Below are positions 5,232 to 51,584 of a stretch of DNA of 51,584 nucleotides, in pieces. Made by a program: the position numbers and the translations under genes. How positions within the stretch are numbered: the stretch's first letter is position 1; every line of letters begins with the position of its first letter. The notes under the pieces were generated by a model. That model saw only the letters and a list, made by a program, of their open reading frames with translations, was not told the origin of the DNA and ran no database searches. The stretch is from an uncultured Anaerolineales bacterium (GTDB taxonomy: Bacteria > Chloroflexota > Anaerolineae > UBA1429): the NCBI GenBank assembly GCA_964649365.1, contig CAZYPJ010000001.1, positions 8,881 to 60,464 of the forward strand. The letters run 5' to 3'.

Positions 5232-6524
5232 ATGATGAAAACACTATATGCTCACAACTTGAGCGCCCGCGAGTTCGAGCTTTGCGACGTTCCTGAAACC
5301 GATAGCCTTGAGCGCCGCGATTGGACCAATCTATCTCTGGCGTTAGTTCAAGCTGAACGTGACGAGTTGCGTCTTCAGCTAGAGCGCACCAACGCCGAGC
5401 TGGCAAGGATGCGCGAGCGGACGGTGCTTTGTGAGGGTCTGGCTTCGATTGGCGAACTTGTTAGCGGCGTGGCCCATGAGCTAAACAACCCCCTCACCAC
5501 TGTGATCGGCTATGCTCAGTTGCTCCAAGCTTCGGGCACTTCTGATGAGATGCGCGCCGATCTAGACATCATCAGCCACGAAGCGGAGCGCTGCCATCGG
5601 ATCGTGCAAAATCTGCTCAATTTGGCGCGTCAGAAAAAAGTCGAGTTAGGACCGGTGGCGCTGGATGAAATGATCCAGCGTACACTGGAACTTAAAGCAT
5701 ATGGGTTGCGCGCTGATAATATCCGTGTGACGCTAGAAACGGAAGCAACTCCGCCAGTGTTGGGCAATCCTTACCGCTTACAGCAGGTCCTGCTTAATTT
5801 GGTGAACAATGCGCACGATGCGATGGCGCAGGCACACGGTCGGGGTATGCTTACCATTGGTTGCCGAGTAGTGACGGGCAAAGCGACCCAAAAAGTGTGT
5901 GTGAGCGTAACCGACGATGGCCCGGGCGTCCCTCCTGGTGTGCGAGAGCACATTTTTGATCCTTTTTTCACTACTAAACAGGAGGGAAAGGGCACTGGTC
6001 TGGGGTTGACCATTTCGCGCCAGATCGTACAAGAAATGGGCGGACAATTAGTGCTAGACACGACCTATACGGGCGGGGCGCGTTTCCTGTTAGAGTTGCC
6101 GATAGACACATCGGGACGCACCCGCGACTCGGATATACCCCGAATGCGTGCGACTTGCGATTCCAAGACTCGCATTTTGGTGGTTGATGACGAGGTTGAC
6201 CTGGCCGAATTGACGAGCCGTGTGTTGGCTTCTTTAGGCTACCAGACGCTCCATGCCGTCAGCGGCGAGGAGGCTTTGTCGCAATTGGACGATTGCGACC
6301 TGGTGGTGCTTGATATCAAAATGCCTGGCATAGATGGTCGCAGTGTGTACGACCATATCTGTCAAGGATATCCTCATCTGATCGGGCGTGTGTTGCTGAC
6401 CACCGGCGACGTAGTCAACACCGAGACCAAAGGATGGGCTGAGGGTACCGGTTGTACGGTGCTGGAAAAACCTTTCACTATCGAGCAACTGGCCGCTGCT
6501 GTGGAGCACGCGCTGATCCTCTAG
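5232..6524 (+). CDS. Hybrid sensor histidine kinase / response-regulator receiver (no TM or recognisable sensor domain)
   Basis: 430 aa. Has an N-terminal coiled coil, the H-box SGVAHELNNPL, the N-box NLVNNAHDAM and G-boxes DDGPGV / GTGLGL. A receiver domain follows: ILVVDDE...DLVVLDIKMPGIDG...LEKP. Confidence 0.9.
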   Translation: MMKTLYAHNLSAREFELCDVPETDSLERRDWTNLSLALVQAERDELRLQLERTNAELARMRERTVLCEGLASIGELVSGVAHELNNPLTTVIGYAQLLQASGTSDEMRADLDIISHEAERCHRIVQNLLNLARQKKVELGPVALDEMIQRTLELKAYGLRADNIRVTLETEATPPVLGNPYRLQQVLLNLVNNAHDAMAQAHGRGMLTIGCRVVTGKATQKVCVSVTDDGPGVPPGVREHIFDPFFTTKQEGKGTGLGLTISRQIVQEMGGQLVLDTTYTGGARFLLELPIDTSGRTRDSDIPRMRATCDSKTRILVVDDEVDLAELTSRVLASLGYQTLHAVSGEEALSQLDDCDLVVLDIKMPGIDGRSVYDHICQGYPHLIGRVLLTTGDVVNTETKGWAEGTGCTVLEKPFTIEQLAAAVEHALIL

Positions 6525-46575: not shown

Positions 46576-46605
46576 TTCACGGCTAGGGATAGGGTGTGGT
46601 ACAAT
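46576..46605 (+). promoter_or_regulatory. TG-extended -10 promoter candidate for the lipoprotein-hydrogenase gene string
   Basis: TGgTACAAT (46597-46605) with a weak -35 TTCACG (46576-46581, 18-bp spacer). A second TGtTATCAT sits at 46621-46629. Confidence 0.25.
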
Positions 46606-46650
46606 GCGGCTGTGCGAACGTGTTATCATCTCACCATTCATCGAGGCGCT

Positions 46651-47661
46651 ATGGCTCGAACCCGTTCACTCTATTTGGCGCTGATCTGTCTTGTGGCAGC
46701 CTGGATGTTGGCTGGCTGTTTGCCCTCTGTGGTTCACACCGAGCACGAGTACATCCTGCTGCGCACCGCGGATGACAAGCTGGTCAGCGCGCCCGATGAC
46801 GATCCCTTGTACGAACAGTTCGACCGCGAGGTGTTGAGCGACCCATACTTGCGCCATCTGCTGATGGTGTTCGAACACACCACCGAGGCGTTCCTAGCTA
46901 CCAACACCCGCACGCGCTATCCCCAGACTGTGGCCAACCGCCCAATGATTGTGCTCGATAGCACCCAGCCGGGCGTATTGCGCAACGTGCGCGCCGATTT
47001 CGATGGGACGCCCATGCGCATCGAGTTGGCGTTGGGTTTGGGGCGCGAGGGGACGATGGATATGGTCGCCGCGCGCGACCATATGGCTTTAGCGATGGCT
47101 TCGCTGACGATGGAGTTGATGGGCGTCGAATCGGCGACGGCGATATGGCCGACTGCGGATGAGGTCGTTGCGCCCGACCTGGCGTTCGAGCGTGGCCTGC
47201 AAATCGCTTTCGAGGTCATGCGCGCCGCGCGCGACCCCAATTTGCTGCGCTCCGCCAAACAATTTGATGGCAATTCAGCGGCGGACGACCGCCTGGCTTG
47301 GTATGGGTTCGTGCCGAGCAATGGCTATCGCTATCGCTTTGCCGACGGTCAGCCCACTGCCGCGCTGCGCTCACCCGATGAAGCGCTATGCACGCCCGGC
47401 GTGACCGCCGCCTTCTTCTACCGGTTAATGCAGCGCAGCGACGACTATTATCCGCAGCGTTTTATGCTTTGGTTCGTCAATTACGACGCCGACGAAATCG
47501 CTGAGGCCAAGATCGTGTTGCCCTTACGTTACTTGGCAAGGGGCGATGTTTCAATGCGCGCCTTTATCAAAAGTTATATTGAGACCTACCCGGCAGACAA
47601 GGAGCGTGTGCTTGCCCTGGCCAACGAGACCTTTGGGGCCAGCGATTGGCTTGCGCCCTAG
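46651..47661 (+). CDS. Hypothetical lipoprotein (no family recognised)
   Basis: 336 aa from ATG 46651. The signal with lipobox is MARTRSLYLALICLVAAWMLAGC. The track ORF starts at 46594. Confidence 0.6.
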   Translation: MARTRSLYLALICLVAAWMLAGCLPSVVHTEHEYILLRTADDKLVSAPDDDPLYEQFDREVLSDPYLRHLLMVFEHTTEAFLATNTRTRYPQTVANRPMIVLDSTQPGVLRNVRADFDGTPMRIELALGLGREGTMDMVAARDHMALAMASLTMELMGVESATAIWPTADEVVAPDLAFERGLQIAFEVMRAARDPNLLRSAKQFDGNSAADDRLAWYGFVPSNGYRYRFADGQPTAALRSPDEALCTPGVTAAFFYRLMQRSDDYYPQRFMLWFVNYDADEIAEAKIVLPLRYLARGDVSMRAFIKSYIETYPADKERVLALANETFGASDWLAP

Positions 47662-47680
47662 CGTCAACGTAGGAGGAATA

Positions 47681-48526
47681 GTGAACGCGACGACGAGTTT
47701 TGCAGTGTTGCAACTTTCGGGCTGCGCGGGTTGTGAGGTGTCGCTGCTCAACGCCGAGGATTGGATCGGGCGGCGCAGCCTACGCTATATGCCGTTGGTG
47801 ATATCGAGCGAAGATTTTCCCGAAGTGGATACGCTGCTCGTCACCGGCGCCGTGCGCACCGATGAGGATCTCTATCGTTTGCGGCAAGCGGCCAGCCGCG
47901 CTAGGGAGTTGATTGCTGTGGGCACCTGCGCCATCTCGGGTGGGGTGGCCAACTTGGGCGACCGCGACGAGGTGCGCGCTATGTTCTTTGCCGATATGGA
48001 GCGCCGCCATGTGCCCCGTCTGTTGCCCAAGCTGCACCCAGTGGACGCCATTGTGCCGGTGACGCGCTACCTTCCCGGTTGTCCGCCCACGCCTCATCTA
48101 TTCATGGCGGCGTTGTTCAACCCGGATGACTTTCAAGCTGCCAAGACGGTGTGCATCGAATGTGGTCGTAAAAAGACGCGCGACCGCCCCCCGCACCTGT
48201 TGGGCTTTCAGAGCGGGCGGGTAGATCCCGAGACGTGTTTGATTAACCAAGGCTATCTGTGCATTGGCTCTTCTACGCGCGGCGGCTGCGGCGCGCCTTG
48301 CACCCGCGCAGGCCACCCATGCGTGGGCTGTCGCGGCCCTTCCGAGGGGTTTATCTCGCGCTCGTCGCGAGAGTGGTTCGCTGCTATCCGCAAGGTATTC
48401 GAGCGGATGACCGCTGTTCCCTCGGAAGAGCTGGATGAAGCGCTGCGCTCGCCGCAGTTGGCGCTGTTCATCTTTCAGTTCTCTGATTATGCCGCCATCC
48501 CCCGCGATGTAAAGAAGGTGCTTTGA
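47681..48526 (+). CDS. [NiFe]-hydrogenase small (FeS) subunit, cytosolic group-3-like (no Tat signal)
   Basis: 281 aa. GTG 47681 has AGGAGG (47671-47676) 4 nt upstream. The proximal-cluster cysteines are in QLSGCAGCEVS, GTCAISGG and YLPGCPP. A further 8 Cys sit in CIECG...CLINQGYLCIG...GGCGAPC...PCVGC for the medial and distal clusters. The track start 47546 overlaps the upstream gene. Confidence 0.85.
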   Translation: MNATTSFAVLQLSGCAGCEVSLLNAEDWIGRRSLRYMPLVISSEDFPEVDTLLVTGAVRTDEDLYRLRQAASRARELIAVGTCAISGGVANLGDRDEVRAMFFADMERRHVPRLLPKLHPVDAIVPVTRYLPGCPPTPHLFMAALFNPDDFQAAKTVCIECGRKKTRDRPPHLLGFQSGRVDPETCLINQGYLCIGSSTRGGCGAPCTRAGHPCVGCRGPSEGFISRSSREWFAAIRKVFERMTAVPSEELDEALRSPQLALFIFQFSDYAAIPRDVKKVL

Positions 48527-49827
48527 TGGCCACGCTTACCATTCCGCTCAGCCGCATCGAAGGGCACGCCCAGGTCACCATCACCTTTCACGGCCATGAA
48601 GTTCTCTCCGCTCACTTTCAGGCCACCGAGTTGCGCGGGTTCGAGTATTTCGTGCAAGGGTCGCGGGCCGAGGATTTGCCCGTCATTGTGCCGCGCATTT
48701 GTGGGGTGTGTTCCACGGCGCACCACATCGCCGCCGTCAAGGCGTTGGAGCACGCCTTTGGCGTGACCCCGCCTCCGAAAGCGGTGCGCATTCGCGAGCT
48801 GATGATGCTGGGGCAATTGATCCAAAACCAGGCCACCTCGCTCTTTGTGTTCACCATGCCTGACTTGCCGGGCCGCGAGGGGTTGCCCAGTATGTTTCAC
48901 TTTGGGGCCGAAGACGCTGCGCTCGCGCCCAGGGCGTTGCAAGTGCGCCGCGCTGGCACCGAGTTGATCGCCCTGGCGGGGGGCCAGTTCATTCATCCCG
49001 TCAAGGCGGTCGTCGGTGGGGTGACTTCGGGCGTGGCCGCCGAGGCGGCCCGCGCCATGCGCGCTCGGCTACAAGAGGCGTTGCCGTTGGCCCAAGAGTT
49101 GTTCGAGCGCTACTGGACGCTGTTTGTGGGCCTCAAAGATCGCATTGGCACTTTGGGCGACGATAATCCTACCTACTATCTGGCTGCGGTCGAGCCGCAT
49201 CATGCCTATTATGGCAACCGCATCGGCGTGTTAGCACCCGACGGCGTGGAAGAAGCTTCGTTTCCGGCCTGCGACTATACTCGCTACCTCACCGAGTCGC
49301 CGGTCGAGACCAGCTATTCCAACGGTACCCTGTTCAAAGGCCAGATGCTGCGGGCCAATTCGCTGGCTCGGCTCAATATGCTGCCCGTATTGGGAACCCC
49401 TCTGGCCGACCGTTACATGGCTCGCTTTCGCGGCGAGTTCGGCTACCCTGCGCACGCCATTCTGCTGTTCGATCTGGCGCGCGGCGTCGAGTTGGTCTAT
49501 TGCCTCGAACGCGCCCTGGAATTGCTGGAGGAAAACCTTGACGGCGACGACCTGCGCGTGGCTTATACGCCACGTGATGGCGAGGGCTGCGGCTTGGTTG
49601 AAGCGCCGCGCGGCCCGCTGATCCACCATTACGCCATCGCCGATGGCCTGGTGCGCAGCGCCAAGTTCATCATCCCCACGCAGCACAACATTCTGGCCAT
49701 CGAGCGCGCCCTGCTGGTGGCGGCGCGGCGCTATATCACTGCGCAGGGCATCAGCCTCGAACTCGAGCGCGCTGTGGGGCGCGTGGTGCGCGCTTTCGAT
49801 CCGTGCATCGCGTGTGCGACACACTGA
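48526..49827 (+). CDS. [NiFe]-hydrogenase large subunit, group-3-like, ending at the DPCxxCxxH histidine
   Basis: 433 aa. ATG 48526 overlaps the small-subunit TGA by 1 nt. Shows N-terminal SRIEGHAQV and the L1 motif RICGVCSTAHH. The C-terminal DPCIACATH (49798-49824) is followed immediately by TGA 49825-49827. Confidence 0.9.
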   Translation: MATLTIPLSRIEGHAQVTITFHGHEVLSAHFQATELRGFEYFVQGSRAEDLPVIVPRICGVCSTAHHIAAVKALEHAFGVTPPPKAVRIRELMMLGQLIQNQATSLFVFTMPDLPGREGLPSMFHFGAEDAALAPRALQVRRAGTELIALAGGQFIHPVKAVVGGVTSGVAAEAARAMRARLQEALPLAQELFERYWTLFVGLKDRIGTLGDDNPTYYLAAVEPHHAYYGNRIGVLAPDGVEEASFPACDYTRYLTESPVETSYSNGTLFKGQMLRANSLARLNMLPVLGTPLADRYMARFRGEFGYPAHAILLFDLARGVELVYCLERALELLEENLDGDDLRVAYTPRDGEGCGLVEAPRGPLIHHYAIADGLVRSAKFIIPTQHNILAIERALLVAARRYITAQGISLELERAVGRVVRAFDPCIACATH

Positions 49828-49866: not shown

Positions 49867-50649
49867 ATGCGTCTGAAAGACCGGGTTGCAATCGTAACCG
49901 GAGGGGGGCGCGGCATCGGTCGGGCCATCGTCAAGCGATTCGCTGCTGAAGGGGCCAGTGTGCTCATCGCGCAGCGTGATGTAGCCAGCGCCGAGGCGAC
50001 TTTGCAGGATGTGCGGGTGGCGGGCGGCGTAGCGGCTTTTACGCCGACAGATGTCTCGCAGCGCGACTCAGTCGAACATATGGCAGCCGAGGCTGTGCGC
50101 CTATTCGGGCGCATAGACATCCTGGTGAGCAACGCCGCCAAGCTCGGCCTCAATGGTCACTTCTTGGAGGTGCCACAAGAGAATTGGGATGAAGTCATTG
50201 CTACCAACCTGACAGGGTGCTTTATGTGCGGCCAGGTCGTGGCGCGCGTGATGGCGCGGCAAAAGAGCGGCTCTATCTTGAATGTCTCGTCTATCAATGG
50301 CATTTTGCCCTTGCCTCATTGCGCCGCCTACGCCTCGGCCAAAGGCGGGGTCAACCTTCTCACTTTGAGCATGGCCATTGATCTGGCTGCCTATGGCATC
50401 CGCGTCAACGCGATCATCCCGGGGCCGATCCAATCGCGCGAAGATGAGGATGCCGCCCCTCGCCCGACCAAAGCTACGCTGATGGGTAGAGTGGGTTTGA
50501 CGAGAGAGGTTGCCTCGGCGGCTCTTTTCCTGGCTTCCGATGAAGCCAGTTTCATCACGGGACAATCTATCACTGTGGATGGCGGCAACATCATCAATGC
50601 TTATGGCCTGTACGACTCGGAGCAGTTGCGCCCCAAGCTGGGCGCATAG
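49867..50649 (+). CDS. Short-chain dehydrogenase/reductase (FabG-like SDR)
   Basis: ATG 49867 has GGAGGA upstream. The cofactor motif is VTGGGRGIGRA and the catalytic motif is YASAK, with NAA upstream. Confidence 0.9.
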   Translation: MRLKDRVAIVTGGGRGIGRAIVKRFAAEGASVLIAQRDVASAEATLQDVRVAGGVAAFTPTDVSQRDSVEHMAAEAVRLFGRIDILVSNAAKLGLNGHFLEVPQENWDEVIATNLTGCFMCGQVVARVMARQKSGSILNVSSINGILPLPHCAAYASAKGGVNLLTLSMAIDLAAYGIRVNAIIPGPIQSREDEDAAPRPTKATLMGRVGLTREVASAALFLASDEASFITGQSITVDGGNIINAYGLYDSEQLRPKLGA

Positions 50650-50679: not shown

Positions 50680-51584
50680 ATGACAGTTGCAAAAAGAAGA
50701 GTGGGCATCTATCTTGGGGCCAGCGACATCTTGGAGAACCCAGGCTACTTGGAAACATTGCGCGAACGTTTGGGTCTGAACATGGTCATCATCAGCTTTT
50801 GCGGCCAATTATCCGAGGCGGTGCTCAAATTCAACCCCTACGATGGCCAGCCGCCGACGGACGATTGCGTGCGTTCGCTGATCTGCCGACGTATTGATGG
50901 CAAGCTGTGCAGCGAGGATTTCTCCAGCGCATATCGTTCGACCGGGCCGAGCGTGGGTCGGCACAGCGCCGCCGACGAACGCCTGATGCGCCGCGCGATT
51001 GACGAGGCGCATCGGGTGGGTCTGGAGGTCTGGCTACTCAGCGAGGCCTGGGCGGCGGGCGATTGGGCCGAACTGATGTATTGCCCCAGCAACCCAAAAG
51101 TGAACCGGTGGTACGAGGCGGTCTATACCCACATTGCGACCCACTATGGCGTCGAGGGCCTCGATATTACCCATGCGCGCTACCCGATGACCAGCCATCC
51201 GCGCGCGATGTTCATCTGCGGCTGCGACGAATGCGCCAAGACAGCTGCCGCGATGGGCTATGATATGGCGCAGATGAAGGCCGATATTTGGGATGCGCTC
51301 AAACGCCTGCGCGAGGCCGATGGCAAGCGCCTGGCAGTGGTTTGCGCCGAGGGGATGGGACCTTTTGACTATATGCAGTTGTTGGGGATGAAAGAGGGCA
51401 TTATCCAGTGGTTCAAGTTTCGGGCTAACGTCCTGGCCGATCAATTCGCGCGCTTTCATACCGCCGTTCACGCGGCGGCGGGCGAGCAGTTTATCTTTGG
51501 AACGGACACTTATCCCGCTTCACTCTCGATCTACGCTGGCCATAATCACGCTCGCTGGAACGAGTTTTCCGACTTTGCCAGTCC
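50680..51584 (+). CDS. 5' part of an unannotated gene (at least 301 aa, runs off the window); possible TIM-barrel glycoside-hydrolase-like protein
   Basis: Not in the supplied ORF track because it has no stop. ATG 50680 has GAGGAGGG upstream. I translated all 301 codons by hand and found no stop: MTVAKRRVGIYLGASDILENPGYLETLRERLGLNMVIISF...GVEGLDITHARYPMTSHPRAMFICGCDECAK... The GLDITHARYP segment resembles the DxxxRYP segment of GHL10-type barrels (weak). Confidence 0.55.
   Translation, partial: MTVAKRRVGIYLGASDILENPGYLETLRERLGLNMVIISFCGQLSEAVLKFNPYDGQPPTDDCVRSLICRRIDGKLCSEDFSSAYRSTGPSVGRHSAADERLMRRAIDEAHRVGLEVWLLSEAWAAGDWAELMYCPSNPKVNRWYEAVYTHIATHYGVEGLDITHARYPMTSHPRAMFICGCDECAKTAAAMGYDMAQMKADIWDALKRLREADGKRLAVVCAEGMGPFDYMQLLGMKEGIIQWFKFRANVLADQFARFHTAVHAAAGEQFIFGTDTYPASLSIYAGHNHARWNEFSDFAS

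Follow-up and report, generated by a model that had tools for sequence, protein, structure and literature searches.

The window analysed here, a stretch of 51,584 nt from an uncultured Anaerolineales bacterium (GenBank assembly GCA_964649365.1, contig CAZYPJ010000001.1), carries near its 3′ end two adjacent genes (47681..49827) which, as judged from their sequences, very probably encode a functional [NiFe] hydrogenase heterodimer of the proposed group 3e that matures without a protease step. An Anaerolineae clade with lone small and large subunits was already proposed as 'group 3e' (bioRxiv 10.1101/2021.08.23.457424, 2021), and the same preprint describes its large subunit as near groups 3c and 3d yet distinct from both. 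The hydrogenase of the window belongs to a large, discrete and strongly conserved Anaerolineae clade, an offshoot of the Mvh/Vhu-type group 3c radiation, and its large subunit is predicted to be made at mature length, lacking a cleavable C-terminal extension.

The two subunits and their clade

The small-subunit gene (47681..48526, + strand; PF01058, E 6.5e-23) is of the MvhG/VhuG type. It starts with GTG at 47681, 6 nt past a Shine-Dalgarno sequence AGGAGG read directly from the DNA (47667..47672, + strand), and ends with TGA at 48524-48526. The product of 281 aa has no twin-arginine translocation (Tat) signal or other leader, its N-terminus beginning almost at the proximal-cluster motif LQLSGCAGC. 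Each of its twelve cysteine residues aligns with one ligand of the proximal, medial and distal [4Fe-4S] clusters in MvhG (Protein Data Bank entry: 5odc_E, E 6e-40), and 12 of 12 are retained in each of 20 distinct family small subunits covering the position. From this alignment the small subunit is predicted to carry the complete chain of three [4Fe-4S] clusters that MvhG has. The top NCBIfam match was VhuG (142 bits versus a cut-off of 450), and the C-terminal tail of the small subunit is conserved (...LRSPQLALFIFQFSDY...KVL). The Tat-less small subunit with cysteines for three iron-sulfur (FeS) clusters, as described in an initial annotation made from the sequence alone, was confirmed by the PF01058 match and the MvhG alignment.

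The large-subunit gene (48526..49827, + strand; PF00374, E 1e-34) encodes a product of 433 aa. Its ATG at 48526 shares an A with the stop codon of the small-subunit gene (TGATG), therefore the two genes are translationally coupled. Reading of the sequence located the L1 motif RICGVCSTAHH (48694..48726, + strand), which holds two of the four Ni/Fe-binding cysteines, and the L2 motif DPCIACATH (49798-49824), which is followed directly by the TGA stop codon at 49825-49827 (motif and stop together 49798..49827, + strand), exactly as the initial annotation had reported. All four Ni/Fe cysteines are thus present through L1 and L2, and the N-terminal RIEGH with its glutamate is found as well. The closest structural relative is MvhA (Protein Data Bank entry: 5odc_F, E 1e-70); the alignment reaches residue 448 of 473, leaving 25 MvhA residues with no counterpart in the window protein. 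The top NCBIfam match was VhuA (245 bits versus a cut-off of 800). The folds appear settled by the full-length alignments to MvhA and MvhG. The L1, L2 and RIEGH motifs, the PF01058 small subunit and the hyp genes in the genome together are those of a [NiFe] catalytic heterodimer. The missing Tat signal and the best PDB and NCBIfam matches, which all belong to group 3 (cytosolic, bidirectional), as well as the phylogenetic tree, agree with the group-3-type cytosolic enzyme first proposed. Since there is no cleavable tail, no endoproteolytic step should be needed, and this part of the original interpretation is likewise supported by the sequence.

A protein search with the large subunit returned more than 120 clusters at 63-96% identity, the full-length ones being 426-443 aa long. 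The named matches all came from metagenome-assembled genomes (MAGs) of Chloroflexota/Anaerolineae/Anaerolineales, none from an isolate, and several of these records carry names of anaerobic digesters, an anaerobic membrane bioreactor (AnMBR) or a tar biofilm. A homologue of at least 61% identity was found in 18 of 301 species genomes of the class, the next best matches being at most 37% identical. In a phylum-wide sample, 4 of 401 genomes had a homologue, all in the same class, and no homologue at E 1e-90 or better was found in that sample outside it; the restriction to Anaerolineae given for group 3e was therefore observed here too. Across at least eleven family-level lineages the large subunits shared 60-96% identity. 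Besides a quick tree, a careful maximum-likelihood tree was calculated, in which 3e formed a separate long-stem clade, monophyletic with support of 100/100; 3e together with a sister clade obtained 100/100, and VhuA-like sequences were the nearest outgroup (85/94).

Only the small- and large-subunit genes were common to loci L006-L011, L035, L039-L041 and L044-L058, and all-against-all clustering of the open reading frames (ORFs) from about 35 loci found no universal neighbour beyond the two subunits. The lone pair described for group 3e was found throughout, with the exception of one genome (G293), in which hyp and protease-like genes flank it. A universal neighbour gene as electron partner was rejected on the basis of these loci. 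The neighbours of the pair change from locus to locus and include genes for Usp, M23 peptidase, elongation factor G (EF-G), lysine biosynthesis, a GAF-PAS cyclase, ADP-ribosylglycohydrolase and sulfatase; a figure legend of the preprint names such neighbours as M23 peptidase, ADP-ribosylglycohydrolase, sulfatase and epimerase (bioRxiv 10.1101/2021.08.23.457424). Beside the pair, neither the window nor the related loci contained mvhD or hdrABC genes as in group 3c, or HoxFU diaphorase, HydBG-type or FrhB genes as in groups 3d, 3b and 3a, and among the clustered loci no kinase, cyclase or regulator recurred as in group 2b. That no electron-transfer partner is encoded at the locus was hence borne out for the window as well as for its relatives. 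The two-gene layout is the norm of the clade, as the preprint describes. The assignment of the window pair to the proposed group 3e is inferred from the matching description and the neighbour genes. The pair is no unusual isolated case. The initial annotation had named beforehand, as an outcome that would speak against its interpretation, placement in a clade for which large subunits with no extension and two-gene operons are already described as the norm. As regards layout this is the outcome that was obtained, through the 2021 preprint, and the tail-less end also proved to be the norm of the clade.

Among the family proteins from database searches, 157 of 158 end at the L2 histidine (120 of 120 in the first search, 37 of 37 in a further set). 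The loci fetched all end in CATH, with glutamine endings as separate exceptions: the remaining database protein, P0121, a 50%-cluster representative, ends in glutamine, and of 20 species genomes, two from family f59 (G529 and G552; L061 5306-6622 and L062 717-2030) had large subunits ending DPCIACATQ. RICGVCSTAH is identical in 115 of 120 homologues, and the glutamate of RGFE is retained in all sampled loci except one. The sister clade was found in MAGs of Actinomycetota ('Actinobacteria bacterium', 'Candidatus Aquicultorales'; P0124, P0271-P0276) at 43-48% identity, and its large subunits keep a tail of 6-20 aa past DLCVSCATH. Because this sister clade is still tailed, the tail appears to have been lost on the 3e stem. 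A gene of 165-172 aa located 3′ of the sister-clade hydrogenase was considered as a hidden endopeptidase and rejected, as it gave no NCBIfam match and reads as a small membrane protein.

The naturally tail-less groups listed in the literature are 2b, 2d, 4c, 4e and 4g, group 3 not being among them (PMC7294309), and the initial annotation had likewise confined such large subunits to groups 2b and 4. This restriction does not hold, since further group-3 large subunits of VhuA-like and sulfhydrogenase-like type also end at the L2 histidine (P0164, P0179, P0218, P0236, P0247-P0249, P0253, P0257, P0264, P0267). Tail-less large subunits thus occur here and there across group 3, outside the groups given in PMC7294309, and the trait is less exceptional within group 3 than was assumed. 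Two other group-3 large subunits, P0220 (616 aa) and P0261 (583 aa), carry a full endopeptidase domain past the L2 histidine (TIGR00072, 66-77 bits) and appear to be hydrogenases naturally fused to their own protease. The term 'C-terminal' is absent from the main text of the preprint (bioRxiv 10.1101/2021.08.23.457424), and a limited literature search turned up no follow-up characterisation of group 3e. The additions made here beyond the preprint are the clade-wide tail-less end, the glutamine variant, the tailed Actinomycetota sister clade and a genome in which 3e is the sole client of the hyp genes.

Maturation genes and genomic surroundings

The initial annotation had noted that hyp and endopeptidase genes were missing. 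This is correct for the locus itself, whereas a genome-wide search of the window genome (92.6% complete) found, on contigs other than that of the window, a full hyp set, two endopeptidase genes and two further [NiFe] hydrogenases. The genes hypA, B, F, C and D were located on contig C303, and the remainder of hypD together with hypE on C346. Contig C4 encodes a Tat-dependent group-1-type hydrogenase with a large-subunit tail of 16 aa and its own endopeptidase. Contig C10 carries a typical Mvh-type (3c) operon consisting of HdrA-MvhD, a second MvhD-domain protein, a small subunit and a tailed large subunit (about 28 aa). A single in-frame TGA, within the motif TFPTMDCSI*ILAPK, breaks the HdrA-MvhD gene of this operon (C10:19061-21535). 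It is probably a selenocysteine codon, because the position is normally occupied by cysteine in HdrA; several MvhD matches in related genomes likewise contain one TGA. Altogether, the window genome holds four MvhD-domain genes, including a stand-alone MvhD of 157 aa on contig C73, adjoining an HdrA-like giant ORF. Next to it there are also ORFs resembling methylene-tetrahydrofolate (THF) reductase, FolD and formate-THF ligase, which were named provisionally by eye and tblastn. The second endopeptidase gene (C5, 1354-1839) lies between NuoF/HoxF-like and NuoG/HoxU-like genes, named by eye, at the start of its contig (C5:131-6458). No HoxH-type large subunit matching these C5 genes was found in the 92.6%-complete assembly, so that one hydrogenase may be missing from it.

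In related genomes, HypD was present in 16 of the 18 that carry 3e, the two others being 79% and 84% complete. In G032 (99% complete, 30 contigs) the 3e enzyme is the sole [NiFe] large subunit, and hypB, F, D and E are kept together. The sole endopeptidase homologue of this genome (L043, G032:C10, 3240-3726), the orthologue of the C5 endopeptidase of the window genome, is split over two reading frames. Either the gene has become a pseudogene or the assembly is in error here; if the frameshift is real, it agrees with a protease being lost when no large subunit with a tail was left for it to process. In G055 (89% complete) 3e is again the only [NiFe] hydrogenase and HypD is present, and no endopeptidase match was obtained in this 89%-complete genome. 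PF01750 misses divergent endopeptidases of Anaerolineae: it gave no match in G150 and G293, in which TIGR00072 scores about 65-70 bits, above its cut-off. Absences based on PF01750, which is unreliable alone in this class, were dropped as evidence.

Five same-strand genes follow each other at the 3′ end of the window, which is also the end of contig C1 (position 51584): lipoprotein, small subunit, large subunit, a short-chain dehydrogenase/reductase (SDR) and an ORF of no assignment, with gaps of 20, -1, 39 and 30 nt. The terminator scan gave no terminator-like site between them. The lipoprotein gene (46594..47661, + strand, from the ORF list; lipobox LAGC) has its likely true start at ATG 46651 (MARTRS...). 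The protein gave no Pfam, NCBIfam or PHROG match and has no redox motif. Homologues of 29-41% identity are syntenic 5′ of the hydrogenase in genomes of the same family (L039 10787-11764; L006 7820-8827), overlapping the small-subunit gene by 4 nt in G150, and are absent from this position in more distant loci. The hydrogenase is 72-80% identical between genomes whose adjacent lipoprotein has drifted that far. The lipoprotein had been called unrelated in the initial annotation, which stands in that it is no redox protein or subunit, and fails in that it is no random neighbour: it is an exported, fast-evolving and lineage-specific one. The SDR-family oxidoreductase gene (49867..50649, + strand; PF13561, PF00106) is probably co-transcribed with the hydrogenase genes in the window locus. 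The last ORF (50680..51582, + strand), still open at the contig end, was taken from the ORF list and obtained no assignment in Pfam and NCBIfam scans; it is no conserved neighbour. The lipoprotein, the SDR and this ORF are local passengers and no subunits. Conservation of the order lipoprotein-small-large-SDR in relatives had been put forward as a check, and it was not observed, as the lipoprotein is kept within the family only and the SDR was found beside the hydrogenase in no other locus examined.

Electron partner and alternative explanations

The proposed explanation, to which we assign a probability of roughly 0.6 as a whole, is that the product of the two genes is a soluble [NiFe] hydrogenase of group 3e, a functional heterodimer located in the cytoplasm. 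Its NiFe(CN)2CO site would be inserted by HypABCDEF of the same genome, and no endopeptidase step would follow. The NiFe site would either cleave or produce H2, with electrons travelling along the three clusters to a surface-exposed distal cluster and on to a redox partner whose gene lies elsewhere in the genome. The preferred partner would be a diffusible low-potential carrier of ferredoxin type, the main alternative being the MvhD-type domain of an Hdr-like complex. The enzyme could then act as a valve between H2 and the ferredoxin level in a fermentative or syntrophic anaerobe. The ferredoxin-type carrier, taken by itself, is a tentative choice and somewhat short of even odds; it is hinted at by G055, in which a gene for a 2x[4Fe-4S] ferredoxin lies directly 3′ of the large subunit.

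Several observations weigh against this proposal. All known members come from MAGs, and a ferredoxin neighbour occurs in one species genome only. The subclade of G113, G072 and G159 has a DUF6529 protein with four transmembrane segments and a monohaem cytochrome c 3′ of the large subunit. MvhD-domain proteins are present in all 18 of the 18 3e genomes, as docking in trans would have it. In G293 an intact endopeptidase-like gene (5839-6354; TIGR00072, 71 bits) runs 4 nt into the 3e small-subunit gene, which would be surprising for an enzyme that has no use for proteases.

The G293 locus (L041, G293:C57, 2601-7055) has hypA, hypB and a probable hypF directly 3′ of the large subunit. Located 5′ of its protease gene is an ORF of 191 aa ending in a 53-aa remnant of an Mvh-type large subunit with L2 motif and tail, and the protease may therefore be a leftover of a decayed 3c operon. 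In the subclade of G113, G072 and G159, the DUF6529 protein of 135-147 aa is encoded 0-33 nt 3′ of the large subunit (L025/L049, L026/L055 and L028/L052, respectively), and a lipoprotein of about 120 aa with a CxxCH haem motif about 0.5 kb beyond. DUF6529 and the cytochrome c may be membrane-linked partners in that subclade, so that the partner may differ between lineages; tblastn found no homologue of either in the window genome. A wider claim would make group 3e a new physiological class: a minimal heterodimer with Hyp-only maturation which exchanges electrons directly with a diffusible ferredoxin-level carrier, in certain lineages possibly by way of DUF6529/cytochrome c instead, and in which the tail loss on the 3e stem and a later change of the terminal histidine to glutamine in one family would reflect a remodelled C-terminal maturation checkpoint. 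This claim is speculative and doubtful at present.

Alternatively, the enzyme could be an Mvh-like (3c) hydrogenase working with a partner in trans, its distal cluster docking on the MvhD-type [2Fe-2S] domain of an Hdr-like complex. Candidates would be, on C73, the Wood-Ljungdahl cluster with HdrA-MvhD-MetF or, on C10, the HdrA-MvhD belonging to the 3c operon; electrons from H2 would feed flavin-based bifurcation. MvhA and MvhG are the nearest structural and sequence relatives, the clade adjoins VhuA-like sequences and the C-terminal tail pattern of the small subunit is like that of VhuG. The window genome offers four MvhD-domain genes, including the stand-alone one by the HdrA-like ORF. Moreover, G032, G055 and G293 have MvhD-domain genes but no Mvh-type (3c) large subunit, the only other [NiFe] large subunit of G293 being apparently group-4-like. 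MvhD is present in 18 of 18 3e genomes and in 202 of the 283 remaining ones of the class (Fisher p 0.003, uncorrected for phylogeny). However, MvhD is widespread in the class as a whole (73% of genomes; 71% of those without 3e), so the association is weak and co-occurrence was set aside as a non-discriminating test of docking. In addition, MvhD or Hdr genes never adjoin 3e in any locus, whereas they do lie beside the hydrogenase genes in the true 3c operons of these genomes, and the complete genome G150 has MvhD domains only within its own 3c operon. We consider docking in trans rather unlikely.

A role as H2 sensor, analogous to the group 2b regulatory hydrogenases which signal to a kinase or cyclase, would account for the tail-less large subunit and the bare heterodimer, as both are established hallmarks of group 2b (PMC7294309), and locus L011 has a GAF-PAS-guanylate-cyclase gene two genes 5′. 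A recurrent kinase, cyclase or regulator as neighbour is missing, however, and both its sequence and the tree assign the enzyme to group 3, not to group 2. The L1 motif has valine (RICGVC), the residue of standard enzymes, where sensors are reported to have a bulkier isoleucine at the end of the gas channel. G032, with no other [NiFe] hydrogenase to regulate, nevertheless keeps hypB, F, D and E, and overall a sensor is very unlikely. Still less probable is a pair in decay or without catalytic function, left over from an Mvh-type operon that lost its partners. The lack of partner genes and the Mvh-type large-subunit C-terminus beside the 3e genes of G293 would fit such a relic, but the high identity (60-96%) over at least eleven family-level lineages, maintained while the lipoprotein drifted, the preservation of all 4 Ni/Fe and 12 FeS cysteines, reading frames that are intact everywhere and the retention of hyp genes where 3e is the only client all argue against decay. 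The adjacent NAD(P)-dependent SDR had been suggested as physiological acceptor on account of its position, 39 nt 3′ of the large subunit on the same strand and with no terminator-like site between. No SDR lies beside the hydrogenase in the other loci, which refutes it as a family-level explanation, and Pfam finds only adh_short-type matches and no FeS or flavin domain that could accept single electrons from a [4Fe-4S] cluster. This suggestion did not survive, and the chance that the SDR is the partner is close to negligible. The ferredoxin-level hydrogenase with a separately encoded carrier is the reading that we prefer.

Significance and comparison with known systems

Digesters and sediments harbour Anaerolineae in abundance as fermenters and syntrophs, and their ecology revolves around the turnover of H2. 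Of the 301 species genomes of the class that were sampled, 18 (about 6%) carry group 3e, and some of these have no other [NiFe] hydrogenase. With hyp genes only and no protease, group 3e could be a compact model of two genes for the expression of [NiFe] hydrogenases in another host. It could also help to explain the purpose of the C-terminal tail, because its closest sister clade still has one. Overall, the observation behind the initial annotation is correct and its mechanism largely right, with no protease and no partner at the locus, and it is wrong on rarity and on the SDR. The locus in the window adds a further member to the proposed group 3e, and its value is modest because earlier work has described both the clade and the layout of two genes.

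Among other two-subunit enzymes, VhuAG of Dehalococcoides mccartyi is likewise a cytoplasmic group-3 hydrogenase of Chloroflexota, whose VhuA and VhuG were detected by complexome profiling as a complex of just two subunits (PMC6005880). It is probably no close relative, since the phylum scan gave no homologue at E 1e-90 or better outside the class of the window. The group 2b sensors (HoxBC/HupUV) resemble 3e in being naturally tail-less, Hyp-matured with no protease and bare heterodimers (PMC7294309), but they belong to another sequence group and are linked to a histidine kinase of HoxJ type, for which the 3e loci have no conserved counterpart.

The MvhAG(D)/VhuAG(U,D) enzymes of methanogens (group 3c; Protein Data Bank entries: 5ODC, 9SW2) provide the best full-length matches and share the NiFe ligands and the 12-Cys wire. 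In contrast to them, the window locus has no mvhD or hdr genes, far misses the VhuA and VhuG equivalog cut-offs, lacks the tail of about 25 aa and falls into a separate long-stem clade; a true 3c operon, in which HdrA-MvhD is present and the large subunit has its tail, lies on C10 of this genome. The Actinomycetota sister clade has an identical L1 motif (RICGVCSTAH) and, in two loci, small and large subunits only, with no partner genes; it differs in its tail of 6-20 aa, its L2 motif DLCVSCATH and its phylum. Finally, the proposed group 3e (bioRxiv 10.1101/2021.08.23.457424) agrees with the window pair in its occurrence in Anaerolineae only, in the lone small and large subunits and in the same kinds of neighbour genes, and nothing contradicts membership.

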